Positions 13,558-26,252 of a DNA stretch of 64,000 nt are shown here, in pieces. The notes below the pieces were generated by a model. That model was not told the origin of the DNA and ran no database searches. It worked only from the letters and a program-made list of their open reading frames with translations. A program made the position numbers and the translations under genes. Source of the DNA: Naegleria gruberi (taxonomy: Eukaryota); NCBI GenBank assembly GCA_000004985.1, contig GG738853.1; one strand, written 5' to 3'. The stretch's first letter is position 1. Each line of letters opens with the position of its first letter.

Positions 13558-14670
13558 TTAGAGTTTACTAACAGTTGTTGCAGCAGCATCATCTTGTTCA
13601 TCACTATTAGCTTGTGGATTCAACTCCATAATTTCAAAATCAAATCTATACTCATATCCGAGCTTATCGTAAATAGGAAGACCATCAAGAGAGGCTTGAA
13701 TAACAATGTATTCATACTTGTCCTTTCTGGTCTTGGCCAATTCAAGCATGGCAATCATCATGACAGTGGCAAATCCCTTTCCTCTATACTTTGGTTTAGT
13801 ACACAAATTACTTCCATAGCAAGTTCTTGGTCCAAAGAAGACTTGTCCAGTGGTTGCAATCTCATTGGTAGCCAAATCCTTGATACAAATCCATGAGAAT
13901 TCATCAGAGTGGAGAGGATAGGTATTATTCATTACTTCAGCAGTCAGTGGACCAGATTTAAAGTCAGTAAAGGTCTCTTGCATACAATCAATGACTTGAA
14001 TTAATTCTTCACGAGTCTCTACAATTTTCATCACAAAATCATTACCCAATTGACATACAACATTCTCACCATTGCTGATTTGGAAAGGTTGGAGTATTCC
14101 CTTATATCCCATAGTATTCTGCATCATTTCCTTCTTACTCTTCATGTAGGAAGTTTCCTCTTCACGTAAATAATAGATCATTCCATGATAGACACTATAA
14201 TCGGTAACATATTGTCCAAGTCTTTCATAGAGAGGTTGATATTTGGTGAGTCTACCTTCGGAATCTAACAAACCCTCCTGAACCATCTTTTCAGTTTGTT
14301 GTTCAACTCTTCCATTCTCAACTAACAAGGTTTTACATTTGGTATCGGGCAGGAAGAGGTAAACCAATGAACGTTTAGCTTGTTTTTCAACAAGGTCAAT
14401 CAATTCAAAATTAGTAATATCATCCCTGCAGGTGTAAGTTGGATTTGGCTCATCCAATTCCTCATATCCAGGTTTAATGCAATTGATGGACTCTTTTTCT
14501 GTTTCTTGTAAATCGGAGAGAGTAGGAATGGCTCTTACCATAATTTGATTCATTTCAAAAATTGAATAGCTAATATCGGCATTCTCCTGTTCTAATTTCT
14601 TCTGTTGTTGGTTAATGATGCTATTAAGAGAATAAGTAGTGTTGGTGGTACATGATGTTGTTTCACTCAT
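13558..14670 (-). CDS. protein with C-terminal GNAT-family N-acetyltransferase domain
   Basis: ATG at 14670-14668 and 370 aa. The C-terminal region carries the GNAT acetyl-CoA-binding signature ...KPKYRGKGFATVMMIAMLELAKTR... in a ~150-aa acetyltransferase-like fold. I do not recognise the N-terminal two thirds. Confidence 0.6.
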   Translation of the reverse strand: MSETTSCTTNTTYSLNSIINQQQKKLEQENADISYSIFEMNQIMVRAIPTLSDLQETEKESINCIKPGYEELDEPNPTYTCRDDITNFELIDLVEKQAKRSLVYLFLPDTKCKTLLVENGRVEQQTEKMVQEGLLDSEGRLTKYQPLYERLGQYVTDYSVYHGMIYYLREEETSYMKSKKEMMQNTMGYKGILQPFQISNGENVVCQLGNDFVMKIVETREELIQVIDCMQETFTDFKSGPLTAEVMNNTYPLHSDEFSWICIKDLATNEIATTGQVFFGPRTCYGSNLCTKPKYRGKGFATVMMIAMLELAKTRKDKYEYIVIQASLDGLPIYDKLGYEYRFDFEIMELNPQANSDEQDDAAATTVSKL

Positions 14671-15159: not shown

Positions 15160-16578
15160 ATGATTGAAGTTGAACCAATGAAACCCGTTCGCATTATTTG
15201 TGAACTCAAGGCTACACCAAATGATGCTGTTGATGATGATCAGAACAATAACACAGAGCAGAAAAATCCAAAGGATGAATTTGGTTATCCAAAGACAAGC
15301 CTTGAATATATTACAAAATATTATCAAGATCATCCGGAGGAGAGCAGCAATCCAGAGAATTTTGCAATTATTGTCGGATCCGATAATTATGATGGTACTC
15401 ATGTCAAGGCGATGATATTTGATCTTGAAAAGTATAACATTAAAGATGTTATTGCTATGGAAACTACAGTAATATTTCTGGCAAAGAATGGAGTTTGCTA
15501 TTGTTTATTATATGAAGAAAGCAATTATTGGACTCATAGATTGAACAATGCTAACGAGATTAATGGAGAAATTGCATATGCAGCTACATTTTCGTTGGAA
15601 GATCCTGTAGAGAGAGTCATAGCAAGAGAAGGTGTCATGTTTATTACAAAATCAGGAAGATTGATTTATTGGAATAGGAGTGACAATTTGGAGTTTGAAC
15701 CGGCCCAGTTTGATTATGAAAAAATTGTTGACATTGCATTAGGTGATGGTCACACTTTATTCCTATCAGAAAATGGTAACTTATATGGATATGGAAGCAA
15801 TAGTAGGTTTTTATTATTGATTTAAAATTATTAATCTATTGAAATAGCTGCTGGTCAATTAGGTAATGACATCTCTCACAAATCACATCATGTAAAATTT
15901 AATATTTCACACATACCTGACCGTATTGTAAAGGTTTACGCTACCTACAATACAACTCTAGTTTTAACTGAATCAGGTCATGTATACTCATGTGGAGATA
16001 GCTCATATGGAGCTCACGGACATGCTAATTATACTGAAGGAGGAGGACTTTGCAAAATTGATTTTCCACACAGGGTTGTGGATATTTTCCCTGGTCTGTT
16101 CTTTGTGGCACTAAAAACTATTCAAGACGAGTATTATGTATTTGGCTATAACAACATGTCACAATTTGGACAGTCACATACTATTGAAGAAAGAATTAAT
16201 GGACCTCATTATTTAGATACATTCCAACAAGAAAATATAGAAAGATTGTCATGTGGAGGTTATCATTCATTAATTGTTACAAAGGATCAGAGAGTATACA
16301 TTGCTGGATGGCCAATCGCACATGATTGTTTTCCTTCCAAGGAAAAAACATATCATTTTGTCGATGTGAATGCAATTCTTGGAAGAAAAATACCACTTCC
16401 TTCATATACCGAATTATATGCCACAACTGGACTATACTATATATTGATACAATCAAAGTCAAAATCTACAAATAGGTTTAATTTCAAAAAGAGTTACAAA
16501 ATTTGTGACATTTCATTCAATTTTGAAACAAATACCATAGAACCATATCCTGCATTCATGAACGATGAATATCATTAG
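15160..16578 (+). CDS. RCC1-like repeat (beta-propeller) protein, two exons: 15160..15802 and 15848..16578
   Basis: ATG at 15160. Exon 1 ends ...GSN+A (phase 1) at a GTAGGT donor (15803). A 45-nt AT-rich intron ends ...GAAATAG (15847). Exon 2 continues TAGQLGNDISHKS... in frame with the track ORF 16078..16578, whose 'M' is GTG. RCC1-type blades are recognisable: GDGHTLFLSENGNLYGYGSN-TAGQLGND, TYNTTLVLTESGHVYSCGDSSYGAHGH, GGYHSLIVTKDQRVYIAGW. Confidence 0.7.
15803..15847 (+). other. spliceosomal intron (45 nt, GTAGGT...TAG) in RCC1-like gene
   Basis: Reading through gives an immediate stop (RFLLLI*). Splicing restores the conserved GQLG motif in frame. Confidence 0.6.
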
Positions 16579-16919: not shown

Positions 16920-19097
16920 TTACTCAACTGTAATATTTGAAGAAACAACCTTGCCATCAACCAATTTTCTAAGTTCCATATTGTAAGGTCTCTTTGCAAG
17001 GATATTCTGAACAGTTTGTCTCAAATTTGTAAAGATTTTCCACTCATTACATGCATTATCATCTGGTAATTGGATTACAACATCAAACACTGGATCTGCC
17101 TTCAATTGAAGTCTCATCTTTTCTCCATCTCTTGATGCATTCCTATCACCCATAATCACGCTCTCAACACCTCCTAATAAATCACACAAAATTGGGTTTT
17201 TAAGAATTGATTTCATATCACCGTGAGCACTTCCACACAAAATGACACCCCTTTGGGAAATGGTTCTTGCTGTGCTTACCTCATCTTTTGTTCCAATCTC
17301 ATCAATGACAATTACTTCTGGGGTGTGATTTTGAACTGCTTGAATCATGACTTCTTGTTGTCTTCTAATGTCAGCAACTTGCATTCTTCTCGCCTTTCCT
17401 ATAGCAACATGGGGTATATCACCAAATCCTCCAATTTCACACGAAGTGTCTACAACCACAACTCTTCTCGATTCTGAAAGTGTCTTGGCAAAATCTCTGA
17501 TAAAAGTAGTCTTTCCTGCTCCTGGTTTACCTAACAACAAAATACTCTTTCCTTCTTCTATCAAATCTGAGAACACTTTAGCTCTTCCCATCACTGCTCT
17601 TCCCACTCTCAAGGTTAGTCCAATAATTTTTGCCTCTCTATTGAGCATGGCACTAATTCTGTGCAGTGATCCATCCATACCAGCTCTATTGTCAGTTCCA
17701 AATGATAGCTTGTTAACAATTTCATCAATTTCTTCCTGTTTCACAATGAAGGTTGGATTACTGTATGGTTCCTTTTTGTGGTAGAAGAATAATTCATAAG
17801 GCCTACCTTTGTCCATGGCCACTTCTATTAAATTGTTAACGTCTTCTCCTGATATGGTTGATAATTGTTCCTGAATCTTCTTTGGAAACAAATCCAAGAA
17901 ACTATAAATTTGATTGATTATTGTTACGTTAAAATCAGAGTGTTGCGTCAATATGGCGACATCTTGTTGGGCTGGCTCTTCAAGTGTTGATTTAACCTTA
18001 ATAGTCTCTTGTTTGATGGTTGGGTTTTGCAGTTGATTGTAAATTCCATTCCACAACTTTTTGACTTCTTCATCAACCATAGACAAGATTAATTTAGCTT
18101 CGTCGTTTACAGAATCAGTCATGGCTTGATACAATTGTACAAGTGTTCTAACATCTCCTGAAGCATAATTCAACATTTCTTTAGTAAATATCTTATTGCC
18201 CCAACTTCCAGTACTATGCAGCTTTTTTCCCAAATGTTTGTAACTATTTCCAGGCACCTCATACAATTCACACAGATCATTGAATGAAATATTTCTTTGA
18301 GTATCACTTATTATTTGATAGAGTATTGAAGTGTCAACAATTGATGTTACAATTATTCCAAAATCCTTAAATAATCCACATAAATCATTTTCACAATCAT
18401 GAATTACTTTCAAAATAGTTTCATCACCAAGTACTGTCTTTACAGCATTAACAATAGTTGGATCTTTAAGTTTCATATCAAATAAATATTGAACACCATG
18501 TGCTGAAATCTGAACTAGTGTCAATTTTCCATTTCTTCCCAAATTCACACCTTCACAATCAACACCAATCATCTTTGTAGAATGCTTTGACATGTTAGAT
18601 AGAAATTCATTAGCAAAACTTGGAGTATTCACCAAAACTATATCACCATTATCAACACTCTTCTCAATAGGCATTTCCTTTCCTTTACTCTTCTCAATCA
18701 ATGCATTCAATTTTGATAGAATATTCTTGATTGACTTTTTACCAAAATGTTGAAAAGCACTTGCCAATTCTAAAGCACTACATTGTTGCAATAGTTCCAT
18801 TCCACTTCCAAATGTTTTTTGGGATTTAATTTGTAGTTTTGGAATTTTAATTTGTAAAGTTAGAGTATCTGCCTTTTCATCATATCGGAACCATCCACTA
18901 CTCTCACCACTAAACATTACATCGTAGACATCTTGCCACGATGGTAAATCATCGAATTGCTTTTGATAGGGTTCATAGGAATATTGACATTCGAGAGTGC
19001 CTTCAAATTGATTACTGGTTGCTGGTTTTCCATTGGACAGGACACAAACTGCATAGGCACGGATTAGTTTATCAAGGAGAGTATGATTGTCGGTCAT
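16920..19097 (-). CDS. fusion protein with N-terminal DEDDy-type 3'-5' exonuclease domain and C-terminal SpoIIIAA/Ycf45-like P-loop ATPase
   Basis: First ATG at 19097-19095 (track 'M' at 19127 is TTG). Exonuclease motifs: Exo I IGVDCEG, Exo II KVIHDCENDLCGLF, Exo III SIVDTSILYQI (Tyr-containing, DEDDy). The C-terminal ~300 aa carry Walker A LLLGKPGAGKTTFIRDFA and Walker B VIVIDEIG. The surrounding sequence resembles the Ycf45/SpoIIIAA-type ATPases of cyanobacteria and plant plastids. Confidence 0.7.
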   Translation of the reverse strand: MTDNHTLLDKLIRAYAVCVLSNGKPATSNQFEGTLECQYSYEPYQKQFDDLPSWQDVYDVMFSGESSGWFRYDEKADTLTLQIKIPKLQIKSQKTFGSGMELLQQCSALELASAFQHFGKKSIKNILSKLNALIEKSKGKEMPIEKSVDNGDIVLVNTPSFANEFLSNMSKHSTKMIGVDCEGVNLGRNGKLTLVQISAHGVQYLFDMKLKDPTIVNAVKTVLGDETILKVIHDCENDLCGLFKDFGIIVTSIVDTSILYQIISDTQRNISFNDLCELYEVPGNSYKHLGKKLHSTGSWGNKIFTKEMLNYASGDVRTLVQLYQAMTDSVNDEAKLILSMVDEEVKKLWNGIYNQLQNPTIKQETIKVKSTLEEPAQQDVAILTQHSDFNVTIINQIYSFLDLFPKKIQEQLSTISGEDVNNLIEVAMDKGRPYELFFYHKKEPYSNPTFIVKQEEIDEIVNKLSFGTDNRAGMDGSLHRISAMLNREAKIIGLTLRVGRAVMGRAKVFSDLIEEGKSILLLGKPGAGKTTFIRDFAKTLSESRRVVVVDTSCEIGGFGDIPHVAIGKARRMQVADIRRQQEVMIQAVQNHTPEVIVIDEIGTKDEVSTARTISQRGVILCGSAHGDMKSILKNPILCDLLGGVESVIMGDRNASRDGEKMRLQLKADPVFDVVIQLPDDNACNEWKIFTNLRQTVQNILAKRPYNMELRKLVDGKVVSSNITVE

Positions 19098-19407
19098 GTT
19101 GTTGATGTTTTTTAATTGTATGTACAATAATTATTTGAATCGTGATGGTTGATGACTAAAGAGTTCCTCATTCCTCAGTTTAGCCCATAACTCACACACT
19201 GATACTCACAAGTGAATCCATCATCCAGGGACCAATTGATTCATTGGTTTGTTTTTTTTTAAAGTGGACAGAGCAGTTGATGCATCTTTTTATTCGGTCG
19301 CTTACTAAGGAACCAACAACGGAAGAGTCTTTCCATCCTGTTCCTTATCACAAATTTACAACTCTATTAAGGCGCGGAATTCATCTTCTTCGTCTCTTTG
19401 TTTCTCC

Positions 19408-20508
19408 ATGGTTGTAGGAAATGATGAGGAAAAGTATAAGAGTTTGATATTCAACGCTTTCTGCAAATTCTTCACTCACCATTCTTTTCAAGAATTTAAT
19501 CTTCAAGGAAGAAGGAACTCGACTTCAATTCAACAACATTCATCTTTCCTGATCAACAATTACAACAACAATCAAAAAAAATACCTCACCTTCGCACAAC
19601 CTTTTGCTTGTTCGCCATCTGGTACTATTTTTTTTCACATGGAATTTATAGAACTTTCGGATGATAATTGTTTCGAAATAATTAGTTATTTGGATAATTG
19701 GTTTGTTTTGAAAAATTGCACACTCATTTCCAAGCAATGGTATGACGTGATTCGGTATCGTGTTTCGAATCTTTCCATTTCTTTTAGAAAGAAAATGGAC
19801 GAGGAAAGAGTTTCGAATATATGGAAGAGTGAATTTTTGAATTGCATTAGCAAGGTTCATGTCGGATGTTATGTTGGAAAGAGTTTCTTATTAGCCCTCC
19901 AGAAAATGAAAAATTTAACTTGGTTGGATATTCATTCGAATCAGATTGATTCTGAAGGAGCTCGATTAATTAGTCAAATTCAACAATTGAAATATCTGGA
20001 TATTGGATGCAATCAAATTGGGACGAAAGGAGCCGAATTTATGAGTGAAATGAAACAATTAACTTGCCTAAAAGTCAATAATAATCAACTGAAAGATGAG
20101 GCAATGCAATCAATTGGTCAATTGGAAAATTTAACACATCTTAATGTGAATGGAAATGAAATTCACTCAAATGGTGTTGAACACATTGTGAATTTGAAAC
20201 AATTGACTCGACTTGAAATGAATTGTAATGAAATTAGAAATCTTAATCCTGATTCGATTAGTCAACTTTCGAATTTGACCTATCTTGATATTTACAATAA
20301 TAATACAGGAAATTCGGCTGTGCAAGCAATTACAAGTCTGAAACAATTAACTTTCCTAAATATTGGTTACAATGGAGTTACTTGGTTTGGAGCTTTCTCA
20401 TTGAGCGAAATGAAACAATTGAAAAATCTTAAAATGAAAAGCAATTCAATTGGAAACGATGGACTAGAAGCTTTAAAAAGTTTAATATTTACACAAATTG
20501 AATTGTAA
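19408..20508 (+). CDS. F-box-like / RNI-type leucine-rich-repeat protein
   Basis: ATG at 19408 and a 366-aa ORF. An F-box-like segment (...FIELSDDNCFEIISYLDNWFVLKNCTLISKQWYDVIRY...) is followed by at least eight ~28-aa LRRs (LxxLxxLdIxxNqIgxeGaxxIsxmkqLtxLxvnxNxi). Confidence 0.7.
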   Translation: MVVGNDEEKYKSLIFNAFCKFFTHHSFQEFNLQGRRNSTSIQQHSSFLINNYNNNQKKYLTFAQPFACSPSGTIFFHMEFIELSDDNCFEIISYLDNWFVLKNCTLISKQWYDVIRYRVSNLSISFRKKMDEERVSNIWKSEFLNCISKVHVGCYVGKSFLLALQKMKNLTWLDIHSNQIDSEGARLISQIQQLKYLDIGCNQIGTKGAEFMSEMKQLTCLKVNNNQLKDEAMQSIGQLENLTHLNVNGNEIHSNGVEHIVNLKQLTRLEMNCNEIRNLNPDSISQLSNLTYLDIYNNNTGNSAVQAITSLKQLTFLNIGYNGVTWFGAFSLSEMKQLKNLKMKSNSIGNDGLEALKSLIFTQIEL

Positions 20509-20602: not shown

Positions 20603-21637
20603 ATGCTAAAATCAATCACCACGTTTATCAAGAATAAAATTTCATATGATGATGATAATCAGCCCACTCGGAATGAAATTAAAGAAATTATTTTATTAGA
20701 AAAGAATTTAGAATTTGATTTTCTCCGATCGAATAATTCAAATGGTGATGATCAAGAAGTATCGTCATCATTAGTGAACATGAGGAATAATTCTGTTGAT
20801 AATCTATTGGAGAGTTATCTTCCCGATGAAATGATAATTCACATTTTACAATTTCTTCCAATTACTTGTTTGATAAATCTGGAACGAATTTCACAGAATT
20901 TCAGAAATTATTGGTGTCAATTACCTGAATTGTGGAAGAATCAATTGAATGGAAGGAATATAATGCCCTTCTTACCAATGAATTATGGATCAACAAGAAA
21001 ATACTACCAGAATCAGTTATATTTCGAACAGTTTTTTAAACCAAAATTGGTTAATTCATTTACAATTTTGAAAAAGAATGAAGTATCTTCAAATTTTGCC
21101 ACTCGTTGTTCTTTAATCCTGTTGGGGGATGGATTTTTACAAAAAAGATTCTTGCTACGTATCTGCTCTCTATTTAATTTATCAGCTAGTAAGGGAACAG
21201 TCAGATTTAAGGTAGATCCATATACGGATAATCATTGCATTGATATAATTACAAGTAATCCATGGGTTATCCATACTGCAAGACAGCAGCAAGCAAAAAT
21301 TGCTTGTTTTTGTTTCAATCTCAATGATTATGAATCATTTGTTCAATTTTTTAAATTTAGCTTTTTAAGTTGGAAAAAATCAAATGAACTAGAGGATGAA
21401 GTAATGGAACATTTAGAAAGGAATGAGAAATTTGTATTGATATTTGGATTTTTATCAGATAATGAGGAGGAAAAGGTTCCTCATGGAGAAATTTGTAAAT
21501 TCATTGAGGATAACTTTGGAAAATCATCAATTTCTCAATTACACTCTAACAGAGTGCAATATTTCAAAATCAATCCAGTCAGTGCTTCGATTGAGAATTT
21601 ACTATTTCCAATATTGTATGCCAGATGCTTACTCTAA
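20603..21637 (+). CDS. F-box protein, C-terminal region of unknown fold
   Basis: ATG at 20603 and a 344-aa ORF. An F-box motif is present (LPDEMIIHILQFLPITCLINLERISQNFRNYWCQLPELW). The rest is not recognised. It lies immediately downstream of the F-box/LRR gene on the same strand. Confidence 0.55.
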   Translation: MLKSITTFIKNKISYDDDNQPTRNEIKEIILLEKNLEFDFLRSNNSNGDDQEVSSSLVNMRNNSVDNLLESYLPDEMIIHILQFLPITCLINLERISQNFRNYWCQLPELWKNQLNGRNIMPFLPMNYGSTRKYYQNQLYFEQFFKPKLVNSFTILKKNEVSSNFATRCSLILLGDGFLQKRFLLRICSLFNLSASKGTVRFKVDPYTDNHCIDIITSNPWVIHTARQQQAKIACFCFNLNDYESFVQFFKFSFLSWKKSNELEDEVMEHLERNEKFVLIFGFLSDNEEEKVPHGEICKFIEDNFGKSSISQLHSNRVQYFKINPVSASIENLLFPILYARCLL

Positions 21638-22033: not shown

Positions 22034-23470
22034 ATGTCTCGTTCATATGGTAAACTGTTGGTTATTAACAGTGTCTTGTCATTTCTACTTGTATTCATTT
22101 TGACAGAATTCTGTCATGCCTTGCCAAAAATCAGAGGTTTCAAACAACAATCAAATTCTATTGTAAGACCTTGGTCACAAACGTTTGGAGATTATCGTTT
22201 CTCGAACTTGGTCAATTTCACTCTATCCCATTCTGATTGGTCAACTGAACTTGGTGGCTCAATTGACGAAAACAGTGTAGCCTTTGCTTCTCTTACTAAC
22301 AACAAGGAAGGTTACCTGTACATGATAATTGACTATCCATATACCAATCTGAATTCTACCTTCATCAAATTAGATGCCACCAGTGGTAAAATTGTCCAAA
22401 CTTTAGTTAACATTATTCCACAAGATTCTCAACCAGTCATTATAGAAATTGCAGCACTTTTGGATTCGAATGGAAACTATTACGTAATTAGAAAAAGCAA
22501 AAACGATCACAATGGAGTACTTTTAATGAAAATATCAACAAGTAATTTCCAGGTGCTAACAATTTCAATTTCCACAAGTTTCTTCACTGGAATGGTCATT
22601 TCAGAAAGGAATAATTTGCTAATTGTCCATGGAAATGAATTCGTTTCTGCTTTCAATTTGGATACTTTGAAAACGGTATGGACAACCCAATTGAAAAAGG
22701 ATGATACAATCTCAGAGTCAACCATTGTCCTCGTTGAGAATGAATTCAACGATGGAATTGACATTGTGTACTGTTCTTTCAGAAGTTTCGTATTCAGAAT
22801 TAGAGCAAGAGACGGAGCTGTATTGTCAACAATGGATGTGCACGATGACAGATACTTTGTTGAGATATATCTTTTGCAAATTAGTTATAGTGGAATTCCT
22901 GGTTTAATTGGAGTTCAGTTTGGTTCATATTTCATGTCAATTGAAACAACCACACAAACTTTAGGTCCTAGAACTAAATTGGTATCATTAGAATATTGTA
23001 GTCCTCCAATGTCCACACAAATCAAGAGTGGAGAATCAGAATTCCATTTTGAAACTGTTTTTACCTGTTCCAACATTTCATCTTACATGCAATGGACATT
23101 TGGTTCCAATTATTTGTTAAATTACAAAACTCTCGCTCATCACCAGGGAAATGGAAGAATTGTAATTGAAAATCCCAAATTGAAATATGAATTGGATGTT
23201 GGAAGAGGGCAGGAATCTCATCTTCTTCCAACAAATTCATTGGATTCGTCTGGGTTGACTATTTTGGTTGGATCCAATTCTCAAGAATTTCCACAACCAT
23301 TCAAGTATGATCTTTCAAGAAATGGCATTTCAAAGGTTCAACTTTCGAATAGGAAGAGTGGTGTTTTGAATTCGAAATTTTTGACCTATACAGCAAGTAA
23401 TTCTAGAATGTATGTCTGTAACAATAATGAGAAGAAAAACTATTGCTACTCATCATTGATTCAACAATAA
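22034..23470 (+). CDS. secreted hypothetical protein with N-terminal signal peptide (possible beta-propeller)
   Basis: ATG at 22034. The hydrophobic N-terminus MSRSYGKLLVINSVLSFLLVFILTEFCHA fits a signal peptide. It is a 478-aa single ORF. No confident domain. Segments such as LLIVHGNEFVSAFNLDTLKTVWTTQL are reminiscent of propeller blades. Confidence 0.5.
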   Translation: MSRSYGKLLVINSVLSFLLVFILTEFCHALPKIRGFKQQSNSIVRPWSQTFGDYRFSNLVNFTLSHSDWSTELGGSIDENSVAFASLTNNKEGYLYMIIDYPYTNLNSTFIKLDATSGKIVQTLVNIIPQDSQPVIIEIAALLDSNGNYYVIRKSKNDHNGVLLMKISTSNFQVLTISISTSFFTGMVISERNNLLIVHGNEFVSAFNLDTLKTVWTTQLKKDDTISESTIVLVENEFNDGIDIVYCSFRSFVFRIRARDGAVLSTMDVHDDRYFVEIYLLQISYSGIPGLIGVQFGSYFMSIETTTQTLGPRTKLVSLEYCSPPMSTQIKSGESEFHFETVFTCSNISSYMQWTFGSNYLLNYKTLAHHQGNGRIVIENPKLKYELDVGRGQESHLLPTNSLDSSGLTILVGSNSQEFPQPFKYDLSRNGISKVQLSNRKSGVLNSKFLTYTASNSRMYVCNNNEKKNYCYSSLIQQ

Positions 23471-23595
23471 ATTTGGTATTCCACACAAAAAAGAATTTAT
23501 TCGAAAGATTTTAAATAAAAAATGTGTCATCTTTGAATTATTCGAAAGTAGGAGTTCATCATATTCCGAAATATATTGAGTTTCTAACTAAAAAA

Positions 23596-25020
23596 ATGAG
23601 CAAGATTTTCAAACTCATAATAGCATGCACAACATTATTGGTGTTTAGTTTCGTTTTCTTTCGTCTACTGACCAAGTCACCAATTAATTCAGATAATAAC
23701 ATTTTCGATAGAAATTCCAATACAAAACAAGAAACACCCACCATTCCACACAAGAACAACCTACCAAGAGTCGTAATAGTCCTGGGAACAAGACCAGAGG
23801 CCATCAAATGTGCCCCACTAATCTCACACCTCAAATCAAACTATTCCTCCGAATTGGAATTGATTGTTCTAAGTACTGGCCAGCACAGTGAAATTCTGAA
23901 ACAAACATTGGCAGTATTTGATCAACATGTGGACATTGATTTGGAATTAATGGAACCCAATCAAAGTATTTCCTCATTCTTTACACTTGCTTATCAAAGG
24001 ATTAGTTTAGAATTTGAGAGACAGGGACCTATTTCTATAGTGTTGGTTCAGGGTGATACGACCACATCTCTTGCTGCTGCCCTTGCTGCCAGTTATTTAA
24101 AGATACCTGTTGGACATGTAGAAGCTGGATTGAGATCGTACGATTTCAATAGTCCATTTCCAGAAGAATTGAATTGTAAAATGATTGATTCATTTGCTAG
24201 ACTCTTGTTTGCTCCAACTGATTTCTCTAAGGCAGCTCTTGTTAGAGAAGGTATTTGTCCACAGCATGTGCATGTCACTGGTAATACTGGCATTGATTCG
24301 TTCTATTCCTTAATGTCTGTTCCACCAAAGATAATTCCAGAATTTCTGAAAAATATCAAAAGTTTTAAAGGCAGCAATGATCATGCAGCAGAAACATTGG
24401 CAATTGAGTCACATCATCGAATAGTAATTCTTGTTACAATGCACAGAAGAGAAAACATTCCACACTTTAAGGAAATGTGTAATGCCATCAAAACAATTTC
24501 CAATACATTTGGAAAGAATGTCATGATCATTCTACCTGTACATCCAAATCCCAATGCTAAGAGTGTAGTTAATGAAGTGTTGTCAGCATTGGATAACGTA
24601 CAACTCGTTGATCCAATTGCCTATGACATCTTTCCACATGTGATTAGTGAAGCTGACATTATTGTTACTGACTCTGGAGGTATTCAGGAGGAATCAGCAA
24701 GTATTGGAAAGCCAGTTATTCTCATGAGAGATACGACTGAGAGACCAGAGGGAATTTATATTGGAACTATTAAAAAGATTGGAGTCAATTATTTTCACAT
24801 TGTGAAAGCCATGACAGATGCAATTAAGGATTCACAAAATTCGAAACAAATTCTTTCGAAACACATATTTGGAGATGGGAAAGCTAGCATGAGAATTTCA
24901 AAAATTGTTCGTGATTTTGTCACCTCCAAATTACCAGATTCTATAGAATGTTCTACTCAATTCATCCAAGATTCAATTGCAGAAAGTGTTTACTCTCAAA
25001 ATTTTACCATTCGAAAGTAG
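23596..25020 (+). CDS. bacterial-type (WecB/MnaA-like) UDP-N-acetylglucosamine 2-epimerase with N-terminal transmembrane anchor
   Basis: The track ORF starts at GTG 23524 and the first ATG is 23596 (MSKIFKLIIACTTLLVFSFVFFRLL..., one hydrophobic helix). The remainder aligns along its whole length with E. coli WecB. Matching blocks are VLGTRPEAIKCAPL, VLVQGDTTTSLAAALAASYLKIPVGHVEAGLRSYD...PFPEE, VTGNTGIDS, HRREN, PVHPNPN, TDSGGIQEE and KPVILMRDTTERPEG. Confidence 0.85.
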   Translation: MSKIFKLIIACTTLLVFSFVFFRLLTKSPINSDNNIFDRNSNTKQETPTIPHKNNLPRVVIVLGTRPEAIKCAPLISHLKSNYSSELELIVLSTGQHSEILKQTLAVFDQHVDIDLELMEPNQSISSFFTLAYQRISLEFERQGPISIVLVQGDTTTSLAAALAASYLKIPVGHVEAGLRSYDFNSPFPEELNCKMIDSFARLLFAPTDFSKAALVREGICPQHVHVTGNTGIDSFYSLMSVPPKIIPEFLKNIKSFKGSNDHAAETLAIESHHRIVILVTMHRRENIPHFKEMCNAIKTISNTFGKNVMIILPVHPNPNAKSVVNEVLSALDNVQLVDPIAYDIFPHVISEADIIVTDSGGIQEESASIGKPVILMRDTTERPEGIYIGTIKKIGVNYFHIVKAMTDAIKDSQNSKQILSKHIFGDGKASMRISKIVRDFVTSKLPDSIECSTQFIQDSIAESVYSQNFTIRK

Positions 25021-25220: not shown

Positions 25221-26252
25221 TTATTCGAAAGAAAAGTCAATATCATGATAATTTCCTGCCTTTTTAAACTCAAAATAAGTTGGCATGGCCTTTCGTTTCA
25301 TGGTGAGTGCATTCCACATGGAAATTTGATTTTCCTTCTTTTTAAATCTGAAAATAATTTGATATTCTTTAGAATTGATTTGAATCTCATCTTTTCCATA
25401 AAACAATCGAATACGTTTCATATCTCTAATATCAACAACCTTTTCCAATTCTCTCTCATAATTGCCCAATTCTGCATCTGAATTAATGTTAACTTTTAAG
25501 AAGTGTTGATAAATTATCTCATTACTATTTGGTTTGAATAAAAGCAATTCACCCAATTTGGAAATTGCAATCGATCCATTCTCAATCAATTGATTCCCAA
25601 TCTCCTTACTGTTAATAATTTCAAATTCCAACCCAACCAAAAGATAATCGAACATGTACAATTCTATTGATTGCAGAAATTCAGTATTCTTCTTCACATC
25701 CTTCAGAAATGTACTCTGTTCTGAGAAAAACACAATTTTTTCAGTTAATTTCTTTAAGAGCAAATCAGTTTTCTCTTTTTGATCAGTATCCTCGAGATAT
25801 TTCTGTAAATCTCGATATAAAAGGATATATCTGGATAATCTTGAAAGGAAATAAAAATTAATCATCATTTCATTAGTAAATATCTTGTTATAAATTCCTT
25901 TCCAAACATTGCAATCAAAGGTAATGGAATTGACAATGAAAGTTTCCATAAACAAATCATTATCCAAAAATTTAGACAAGTTTCCAACACACAATTCGAA
26001 ACATGCCTCATAATTTGATGAATCCACAACAACATTCAGCCTATCGTAATATTCCTTCATCACCCAATAAATTTGATCAAGTTTTTTATATTGAAATCTC
26101 AAGTAAATTTGCTGATCCAATGTAAAACAATCCAAATTATTAGTCAACCAGAAATTAAACATTTCGGAAGTTTCTTTAAATTTGCTTATGGTTGTTTGAT
26201 CGGTTTGGATAATTTCTTGCAAGACACGACATGCTCTTTCAATGTTATTCAT
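25221..26252 (-). CDS. hypothetical protein (343 aa), no confident domain
   Basis: ATG at 26252-26250 and an uninterrupted ORF. There is weak resemblance to a DH-like helical bundle followed by a PH-like C-terminus (...IRLFYGKDEIQINSKEYQIIFRFKKKENQISMWNALTMKRK...). I would not call it a domain. Confidence 0.4.
   Translation of the reverse strand: MNNIERACRVLQEIIQTDQTTISKFKETSEMFNFWLTNNLDCFTLDQQIYLRFQYKKLDQIYWVMKEYYDRLNVVVDSSNYEACFELCVGNLSKFLDNDLFMETFIVNSITFDCNVWKGIYNKIFTNEMMINFYFLSRLSRYILLYRDLQKYLEDTDQKEKTDLLLKKLTEKIVFFSEQSTFLKDVKKNTEFLQSIELYMFDYLLVGLEFEIINSKEIGNQLIENGSIAISKLGELLLFKPNSNEIIYQHFLKVNINSDAELGNYERELEKVVDIRDMKRIRLFYGKDEIQINSKEYQIIFRFKKKENQISMWNALTMKRKAMPTYFEFKKAGNYHDIDFSFE

Follow-up and report, generated by a model that had tools for sequence, protein, structure and literature searches.

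Positions 16,920 to 19,097 of the 64,000-nucleotide stretch of Naegleria gruberi DNA analysed here (contig GG738853.1, assembly GCA_000004985.1; hereafter the window) encode a protein that carries a winged helix-turn-helix (wHTH) domain, a DEDDy 3′-5′ exonuclease of the Egalitarian type and an ATPase of the Ycf45/SpoIIIAA family on one chain. Both domain families are already known, and proteins of this fusion family are present in databases without a name; the wHTH-DEDDy-Ycf45 architecture, its breadth across eukaryotes and its kinship to Egalitarian are all undescribed in the literature that we searched. Our analysis points, tentatively, to a modular nucleic-acid enzyme in which an RNA-acting, ATP-driven ring motor is coupled to a tethered 3′-5′ exonuclease.

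Results

Gene structure and public annotation

The list of open reading frames (ORFs) gives a minus-strand frame at 16920..19127, counted as 735 residues from an upstream TTG. Its first ATG, at 19097, yields 725 residues, with coordinates identical to those in an earlier note made on this DNA. The frame runs for 2,175 nt without a stop and contains matches to both PF01612 and PF19568, which bears out that note's claim of one ORF with an exonuclease and an ATPase. The closest database protein, C9374_012917 of Naegleria lovaniensis (P0001, 778 residues), is 55% identical at 100% coverage (E = 1e-250), and because this orthologue aligns from the first methionine to the last residue, both the start and the stop of the 725-residue frame are correct. 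A tblastn search found one copy of the gene in the window. The N. gruberi gene is intronless, whereas the orthologous N. lovaniensis gene (L001 8001-10421) spans 2,421 bp for 778 codons and thus probably has one small intron. Synteny with the N. lovaniensis locus was looked for, and none was seen in the flanking genes.

The public annotation of N. gruberi does not reveal the fusion, because the model EFC47825.1 / XP_002680569.1 (‘predicted protein, partial’, 303 residues) is an ATPase fragment only. An exact look-up of the full window protein gave no entry, and it was the 100% identity of this model to residues 375-677 that placed the window in N. gruberi. The model is without the first 374 residues, which hold the winged helix and the exonuclease, and the last 48, so that only part of the ATPase is left. 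This reference model (303 of 725 residues) needs correction. A second partial N. gruberi model on another scaffold, EFC50045.1 (P0130), is 91% identical to the ATPase half and is a recent paralogue or divergent allele. N. lovaniensis also encodes a Ycf45-type ATPase paralogue, C9374_012297 (P0210, 722 residues), which is 49% identical in the ATPase half and has no recognisable exonuclease; over its first 350 residues it does not resemble the N-terminal half of the window protein. In the portion of Maruyama et al. 2009 considered here (PMC3087521), an N. gruberi ‘YCF45’ (JGI 2396) stands among genes of cyanobacterial ancestry, and that portion mentions no exonuclease for it; JGI 2396 could be either N. 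gruberi copy.

Exonuclease

The exonuclease is matched by PF01612 over residues 155-330 (E = 1.8e-27; 96.7 bits, cut-off 23.6) and has the RNase H-like exonuclease fold. The earlier note had placed the Exo I, II and III motifs in the N-terminal half of the protein. The motifs do align to the DEDD residues, and all five catalytic positions (D180, E182, D238, Y311 and D315) are present and invariant across six aligned fusion proteins; the exonuclease, however, occupies the second quarter of the chain, and the first 138 residues are a separate fold that the note had missed. Given the intact signature, the DEDDy domain is most likely catalytically competent.

The note's assignment to an RNase D/WRN type holds only as far as the DEDDy class. 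A phmmer search of PDB sequences returned Drosophila Egalitarian (Egl) at E = 5.6e-27, with the next entry at 2.4e-09. A profile built from 18 fusion-family exonuclease domains and run against PDB sequences likewise placed Egl first (E = 2.2e-54, 188 bits), ahead of Trypanosoma brucei RNase D (1.4e-30, 110 bits), Rrp6 (T. brucei, 4e-24, 89 bits; Rrp6 range 85-89), EXD1 (1e-21, 81 bits), Escherichia coli RNase D (2e-15, 60 bits), WRN (3e-12, 50 bits) and EXD2 (43 bits). Egl is thus the top PDB match of the exonuclease at 98-188 bits, with the next family at or below 110, and judged by sequence the exonuclease is clearly of the Egalitarian subtype.

ATPase

The best family matches of the C-terminal half are to PF19568 Spore_III_AA, which scores 48.6 bits (cut-off 27; E = 7.8e-13), and to TIGR02858, at E = 1e-20. 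The latter match, at 74.1 bits, lies far under the equivalog cut-off of 281.3, and a SpoIIIAA orthologue is ruled out. Residues 393-720 are 45-48% identical over ~330 residues to residues 3-327 of cyanobacterial and Chloroflexi proteins, which are annotated as Ycf45, ‘R3H domain-containing nucleic acid-binding protein’ or ‘SpoIIIAA’. The Ycf45/SpoIIIAA context that the earlier note had read around the Walker A and B motifs is therefore confirmed. The alignment of the Naegleria ATPase core with bacterial Ycf45 has 70 invariant columns; in the N-domain, the motifs DNRAG, LHRISA and RVGR do not vary, and residues R471, H479, R480, R497 and R500 are invariant too.

PilT/GspE/VirB11-class ATPases are defined by a fixed succession of motifs (Walker A, Asp box, Walker B, His box), which the window protein follows. 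Its Asp-box-like motif is DTSCEI (550-555), with D550 and E554 kept in all 100 fusion proteins compared, and its His-box-like motif is GSAHG (622-626), with H625 kept in 95 of 98. Each of the four motifs is 95-100% conserved across ~100 fusion proteins, and Walker A, Walker B and the His box are ~97-100% conserved across the fusion family. The structural neighbours of the C-terminal half are GspE, PilT, CpaF, PilB, PINA, FlaI, DotB and VirB11, and the half has the two-domain fold of the class. Pfam T2SSE (PF00437) is absent from the 25 families listed of 36 for the window protein, and in relatives it reaches only 15-23 bits, short of its cut-off of 24.9.

The outcome that would have spoken against the Ycf45/SpoIIIAA assignment, a common type of helicase or AAA domain, is not what we find. 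The PF00004 AAA match is confined to profile positions 1-66 of 131, from the P-loop through Walker B; no full-length core match was obtained, and we rejected both a helicase and a classical AAA+ ATPase. P-loop matches to midasin and dynein were also rejected as a sign of AAA+ membership, as they cover only ~40 residues. A search of a phage collection gave two weak P-loop matches and no phage link.

Domain organization

An AlphaFold2 (AF2) monomer model built on a 71-sequence alignment has a mean predicted local distance difference test score (pLDDT) of 89.4, with values below 50 only at residues 139-149 and 360-380. The model divides the chain into the domains listed in Table 1, with a flexible tether predicted between the PF01612 and Spore_III_AA halves. 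Residues 1-40 contain three K/R against four D/E, and pLDDT exceeds 90 from residue 11 on. The chain ends 25 residues past the ATPase domain, in a tail with no R3H domain and no Pfam match. Pfam found nothing significant in the N-terminal 173 residues, in the linker or in the C-terminal tail, and this includes WH_Egal (PF23713), to which the N-terminal domain has no sequence match.

Relationship to Egalitarian

Egalitarian comprises three LOTUS-like winged-helix ‘Egl domains’, an exonuclease-homology domain (ExoHD) and an adjacent helical region, and it binds double-stranded RNA localisation signals (stem-loops) through its wHTH domains and ExoHD (PMC13186709; 10.1101/2025.08.03.668247). The best Foldseek matches of our whole model are Egl chains, with ~440 columns aligned. 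When the Egl ExoHD was used as the phmmer query, the Naegleria protein scored 98 bits, behind three ATPase-less proteins and ahead of the other fusion proteins. A rough neighbor-joining (NJ) tree with RNase D as the root places Egl within the clade of ATPase-fused exonucleases, and this nesting is suggestive only. The simplest reading is that wHTH-ExoHD is ancestral in eukaryotes and linked to the Ycf45 ATPase, and that the ATPase was lost in animal Egl. Neither of the two Egl structure papers uses the word ‘ATPase’ or discusses ATPase-fused relatives.

Distribution of the fusion

To establish the distribution, 1.84 billion cluster representatives were searched with a profile of six fusion proteins, and the retrieved proteins were scanned with separate hidden Markov models (HMMs) for the exonuclease and the ATPase. 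Word-indexed searches with the N-terminal half or the exonuclease profile gave almost only RNase D/EXD1-type proteins and missed the fusions, which is why the distribution rests on the exhaustive representative search and the HMM scans. Both domains occur in the same order in 101 of 243 retrieved proteins, ~95 of them distinct 50%-identity representatives. All named carriers are eukaryotic, spanning four supergroups, and none is named from bacteria. They include the diatoms Nitzschia inconspicua, Seminavis robusta (two genes), Cylindrotheca fusiformis and Striatella (a fragment), the chytrid Synchytrium microbalum, the choanoflagellate Didymoeca costata, the amoebozoans Planoprotostelium fungivorum and Amoeba proteus, and N. 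lovaniensis. Their database labels read hypothetical, ‘AAA’ or ‘AAA+ ATPase domain-containing’. The coupling that the earlier note had called unusual is so only against characterised proteins; it belongs to a large, conserved pan-eukaryotic family. Because the fusion is collinear across distant eukaryotes, it is old and maintained, and not a lineage-specific accident. The ATPase core gave a rough NJ tree, calculated without support values, in which the bacterial R3H-type proteins form one clade with no exonuclease-bearing members.

Further partner domains accompany the pair in some proteins: three OST-HTH/LOTUS domains in P0004, a weak OST-HTH match in P0118 and a CCCH zinc finger in P0083. 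A SAP domain is found in P0052, a relative of the ATPase, and R3H in bacterial Ycf45. The fusion protein P0225, whose prefix ‘Clim_’ we take to denote the unicellular holozoan Corallochytrium limacisporum, carries the WH_Egal domain twice (PF23713; 44 bits, cut-off 27), at residues 47-100 and in a second stretch, ahead of the exonuclease and ATPase. P0225 can be described as an ‘Egalitarian with a motor’.

Genomic context

ORFs around the gene code for a histone H2A, a GNAT acetyltransferase, a protein kinase, a leucine-rich-repeat (LRR) protein and RCC1 repeats. Together with a GC content of ~34%, they mark the locus as eukaryotic nuclear. The two RCC1 ORFs are probably two exons of a single RCC1-like gene with an intron of ~250 bp between them. 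The H2A exceeds the canonical H2A length and could represent a long-tailed variant. Three further ORFs (20603-21637, 22034-23470 and 25221-26252) have no Pfam match.

Table 1. Features of the exonuclease-ATPase gene and its neighbours, in window coordinates
Feature	Residues	Coordinates	Strand	Basis or remark
Complete coding sequence, single exon	725 + stop codon (16920-16922)	16920..19097	-	ORF list; end-to-end alignment to P0001; tblastn 1-725 = 19097-16923
Winged-helix (wHTH) domain, fold like LOTUS and Egalitarian ED domains	1-90	18828..19097	-	
Basic three-helix bundle, isoelectric point 9.7; then disordered 139-149	95-138	18684..18815	-	AF2 helices 99-105, 108-118, 123-137
DEDDy 3′-5′ exonuclease, Egalitarian-type subfamily	150-330	18108..18650	-	
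Exo I, VDCEG, catalytic D180 and E182	179-183	18549..18563	-	invariant in six-protein alignment
Exo II, HDCEND, catalytic D238	233-238	18384..18401	-	
Exo III, YASGD, Y311 and D315	311-315	18153..18167	-	the ‘y’ signature of DEDDy
Long helix after exonuclease, at place of Egalitarian linker helix	331-357	18027..18107	-	AF2 helix 331-357; Foldseek; 10.1101/2025.08.03.668247
Disordered linker between halves	358-391	17925..18026	-	pLDDT <50 at 360-380; long insertion here in N. lovaniensis
N-domain of Ycf45/SpoIIIAA module	392-503	17589..17924	-	start of alignment to bacterial Ycf45; AF2 strands 423-503
P-loop ATPase domain, PilT/GspE/VirB11 class	504-700	16998..17588	-	
Walker A, GKPGAGKTT	523-531	17505..17531	-	K529 kept in 98/100 fusion proteins; position checked against DNA
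Walker B, VIVIDEIG	595-602	17292..17315	-	D599 and E600 kept 98/98
C-terminal beta-hairpin	701-725	16923..16997	-	AF2 strands 705-713, 716-724
Protein kinase	954 aa	8672-11536	-	
Histone H2A	165 aa	12722-13219	+	Histone and Histone_H2A_C matches
GNAT acetyltransferase		13558-14670	-	
Two adjacent ORFs matching RCC1 repeat models		15160-15825, 16078-16578	+	
LRR protein		19408-20508	+	divergent from exonuclease-ATPase gene; ~310 bp intergenic region between
UDP-N-acetylglucosamine 2-epimerase		23524-25020	+	

Discussion

We tentatively propose that the window protein is an RNA-acting, ATP-driven ring motor that works with its tethered exonuclease. In this mechanism, the wHTH domain and the basic three-helix bundle would probably bind the substrate, with the wHTH domain selecting it. 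The ATPase module would assemble into a ring in the manner of PilT-class ATPases, which function as hexamers, and the invariant N-domain arginines R471, R480, R497 and R500 are candidate inter-subunit fingers. ATP would be used to remodel or translocate structured or protein-bound RNA, and the 3′ end would thereby be exposed or fed to the exonuclease. That a ring assembles, that the substrate is RNA and that ATP hydrolysis is coupled to the nuclease are all inferences, as is the ATP-gated nuclease activity suggested in the earlier note; RNA is proposed because the nearest exonuclease relatives (Egalitarian, T. brucei RNase D and Rrp6) and the partner domains are RNA-linked. Going by their families, the partner domains of the ATPase across the family would bind nucleic acid, mostly RNA. 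The proposal is also favoured by joint selection on the two halves: they co-occur in 101 proteins, the DEDDy residues are kept in 48 of 69 scorable members, and Walker A and B and the His box hardly vary.

Several observations weigh against this proposal. Characterised PilT-class ATPases mostly act on protein machinery, and the SAP-fused relatives hint at DNA. At least one DEDDy residue has been lost in 21 of 69 scorable fusion proteins with intact ATPase motifs; the nuclease has decayed repeatedly across the family while the ATPase was kept, and since the signature is lost in these members, nuclease catalysis is not essential to the core role of the family. The DEDDy residues of Egalitarian itself are conserved yet dispensable for its known role (PMC13186709; 10.1101/2025.08.03.668247). 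With regard to structure, the AF2 model has a predicted template modelling score (pTM) of 0.54, at which the relative placement of the halves and domains is unreliable. Ycf45/SpoIIIAA proteins have no solved structure, and a Ycf45 profile run against PDB sequences finds only the ~40-residue P-loop matches to midasin and dynein, and no solved relative. Finally, the literature searched contains gene lists but no functional study of the fusion proteins or of Ycf45.

The same parts could instead make up a DNA repair or recombination enzyme, in which the ATPase ring would translocate or branch-migrate DNA as PINA does at Holliday junctions and the DEDDy domain would trim 3′ DNA ends in a WRN-like logic. 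This is consistent with the presence of SAP, usually a DNA- or chromatin-binding domain, in some eukaryotic relatives of the ATPase, and with the action of the DEDDy domains of WRN, EXD2 and Pol I on DNA. However, the exonuclease is far nearer by bit score to the RNA-associated Egl, T. brucei RNase D and Rrp6 than to WRN and EXD2, and the domains that adjoin it in the fusions (LOTUS, WH_Egal and CCCH) are RNA-linked. We consider a DNA enzyme unlikely.

It also seems improbable that the protein is a non-degradative remodeller or adaptor of ribonucleoproteins (RNPs), whose exonuclease would mainly offer a surface for RNA binding, as it does in Egalitarian and EXD1, and whose ATPase would load, release or remodel RNA or RNPs. 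The stem-loop binding of Egalitarian with dispensable catalytic residues (PMC13186709; 10.1101/2025.08.03.668247) favours such a role, as does the loss of the DEDDy signature in 30% of scorable fusion proteins with ATPase motifs kept. On the other hand, all five residues are kept in the window protein, in its N. lovaniensis orthologue and altogether in 48 of the 69 scorable members over more than 1 billion years, which argues for retained catalysis.

An organellar role, as a mitochondrial counterpart of plastid and cyanobacterial Ycf45 with the organelle genome or its transcripts as target, is very unlikely. The identity of the ATPase half to cyanobacterial Ycf45 and the listing of N. gruberi YCF45 among genes of cyanobacterial ancestry (PMC3087521) would fit this role, but Naegleria has no plastid, the folded, acidic wHTH domain begins at the protein start and leaves no room for a presequence, and wHTH-ExoHD is otherwise known from cytoplasmic Egalitarian. 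An artefact, either two neighbouring genes seemingly fused or chance similarity, can be dismissed: the public N. gruberi model spans the ATPase part only and could be read as a separate gene, but the stop-free frame is continuous, the architecture is collinear in the N. lovaniensis genome model, in MMETSP/EukProt transcriptome-derived proteins and in the ~95 cluster representatives, and E-values run from 1e-13 to 1e-250.

If the RNA motor proposal is extended to the whole family, the combination of wHTH, DEDDy and Ycf45 ATPase might be an ancient RNA-processing machine, possibly dating to the last eukaryotic common ancestor (LECA), in which a ring ATPase threads or remodels RNA; Egalitarian would be its ATPase-less descendant, and Ycf45 would also be a motor for RNA or other nucleic acid. 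We regard this conjecture as doubtful. Elsewhere, PilT-class motors are known from archaeal PINA and from the secretion, pilus and sporulation machinery of bacteria, and we know of no described eukaryotic PilT-class motor that acts on RNA. Should the ATPase work on RNA, a motor of this class would do so in eukaryotes, giving the class a broader range. Ycf45 itself, which extends from cyanobacteria to plastids and many protists, gains context, as its fusions to exonuclease, R3H, LOTUS, CCCH and SAP point to a nucleic-acid role.

Comparison with known systems

Among exonucleases, WRN, RNase D and Rrp6 share the DEDDy fold and catalytic residues with the window protein, and all score far below Egl against the fusion-family profile. 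WRN also shares the logic of a 3′-5′ exonuclease tethered to an ATP motor, its motor being a superfamily 2 helicase, whereas RNase D and Rrp6 have HRDC domains and no ATPase. HerA-NurA follows the same general logic of motor plus nuclease.

The ATPase half has its closest counterpart in cyanobacterial and plastid Ycf45, with which it shares a collinear N-domain and ATPase core, including DNRAG, LHRISA, RVGR, Walker A and B and the His box. Ycf45 lacks both the winged helix and the exonuclease, and canonical Ycf45 carries C-terminal PTPase-like (PF25516) and R3H (PF01424) domains, seen in P0013, which are both absent from the window protein. Arabidopsis SPD1 presumably belongs to Ycf45, and this plant homologue reportedly affects plastid development. 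SpoIIIAA of Bacillus subtilis falls in the same Pfam family as the window ATPase and is its best TIGRFAM match; it acts together with a membrane channel during sporulation and is not known to carry nucleic-acid domains. PilT/PilU/PilB, GspE, VirB11/DotB, CpaF and FlaI share the motif order at an identity of only 12-16%, and enzymes of this class dock onto membrane platforms.

Archaeal PINA (PIN, PilT-like ATPase and KH) migrates Holliday junctions (PMC8775617). Like the window protein, PINA (PDB 5f4h) holds a nuclease fold, a PilT-class ATPase and a nucleic-acid-binding domain on one chain, and it is a structural match to the C-terminal half; unlike it, PINA is archaeal, has a PIN nuclease in place of DEDDy and another domain order, and acts on DNA junctions. 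Since PINA does so, a PilT-class ATPase can act directly on nucleic acid beside a nuclease fold.

For the N-terminal half, the counterpart is Egalitarian (PDB 9uju, 9rvy-9rwb), which has the same succession of one or more winged-helix (LOTUS-like) domains, a DEDDy exonuclease-homology domain and a helix. Egalitarian has no ATPase, and it has three ED domains, a tetrahelical XAD and regions that bind BicD and dynein light chain; the N-terminal domain studied here has no sequence match to WH_Egal. The window protein, which continues into an ATPase, is not an Egl orthologue. The exonuclease-homology domain of Egalitarian may be the remnant of an ATPase-coupled nuclease that survives in unicellular relatives of animals.

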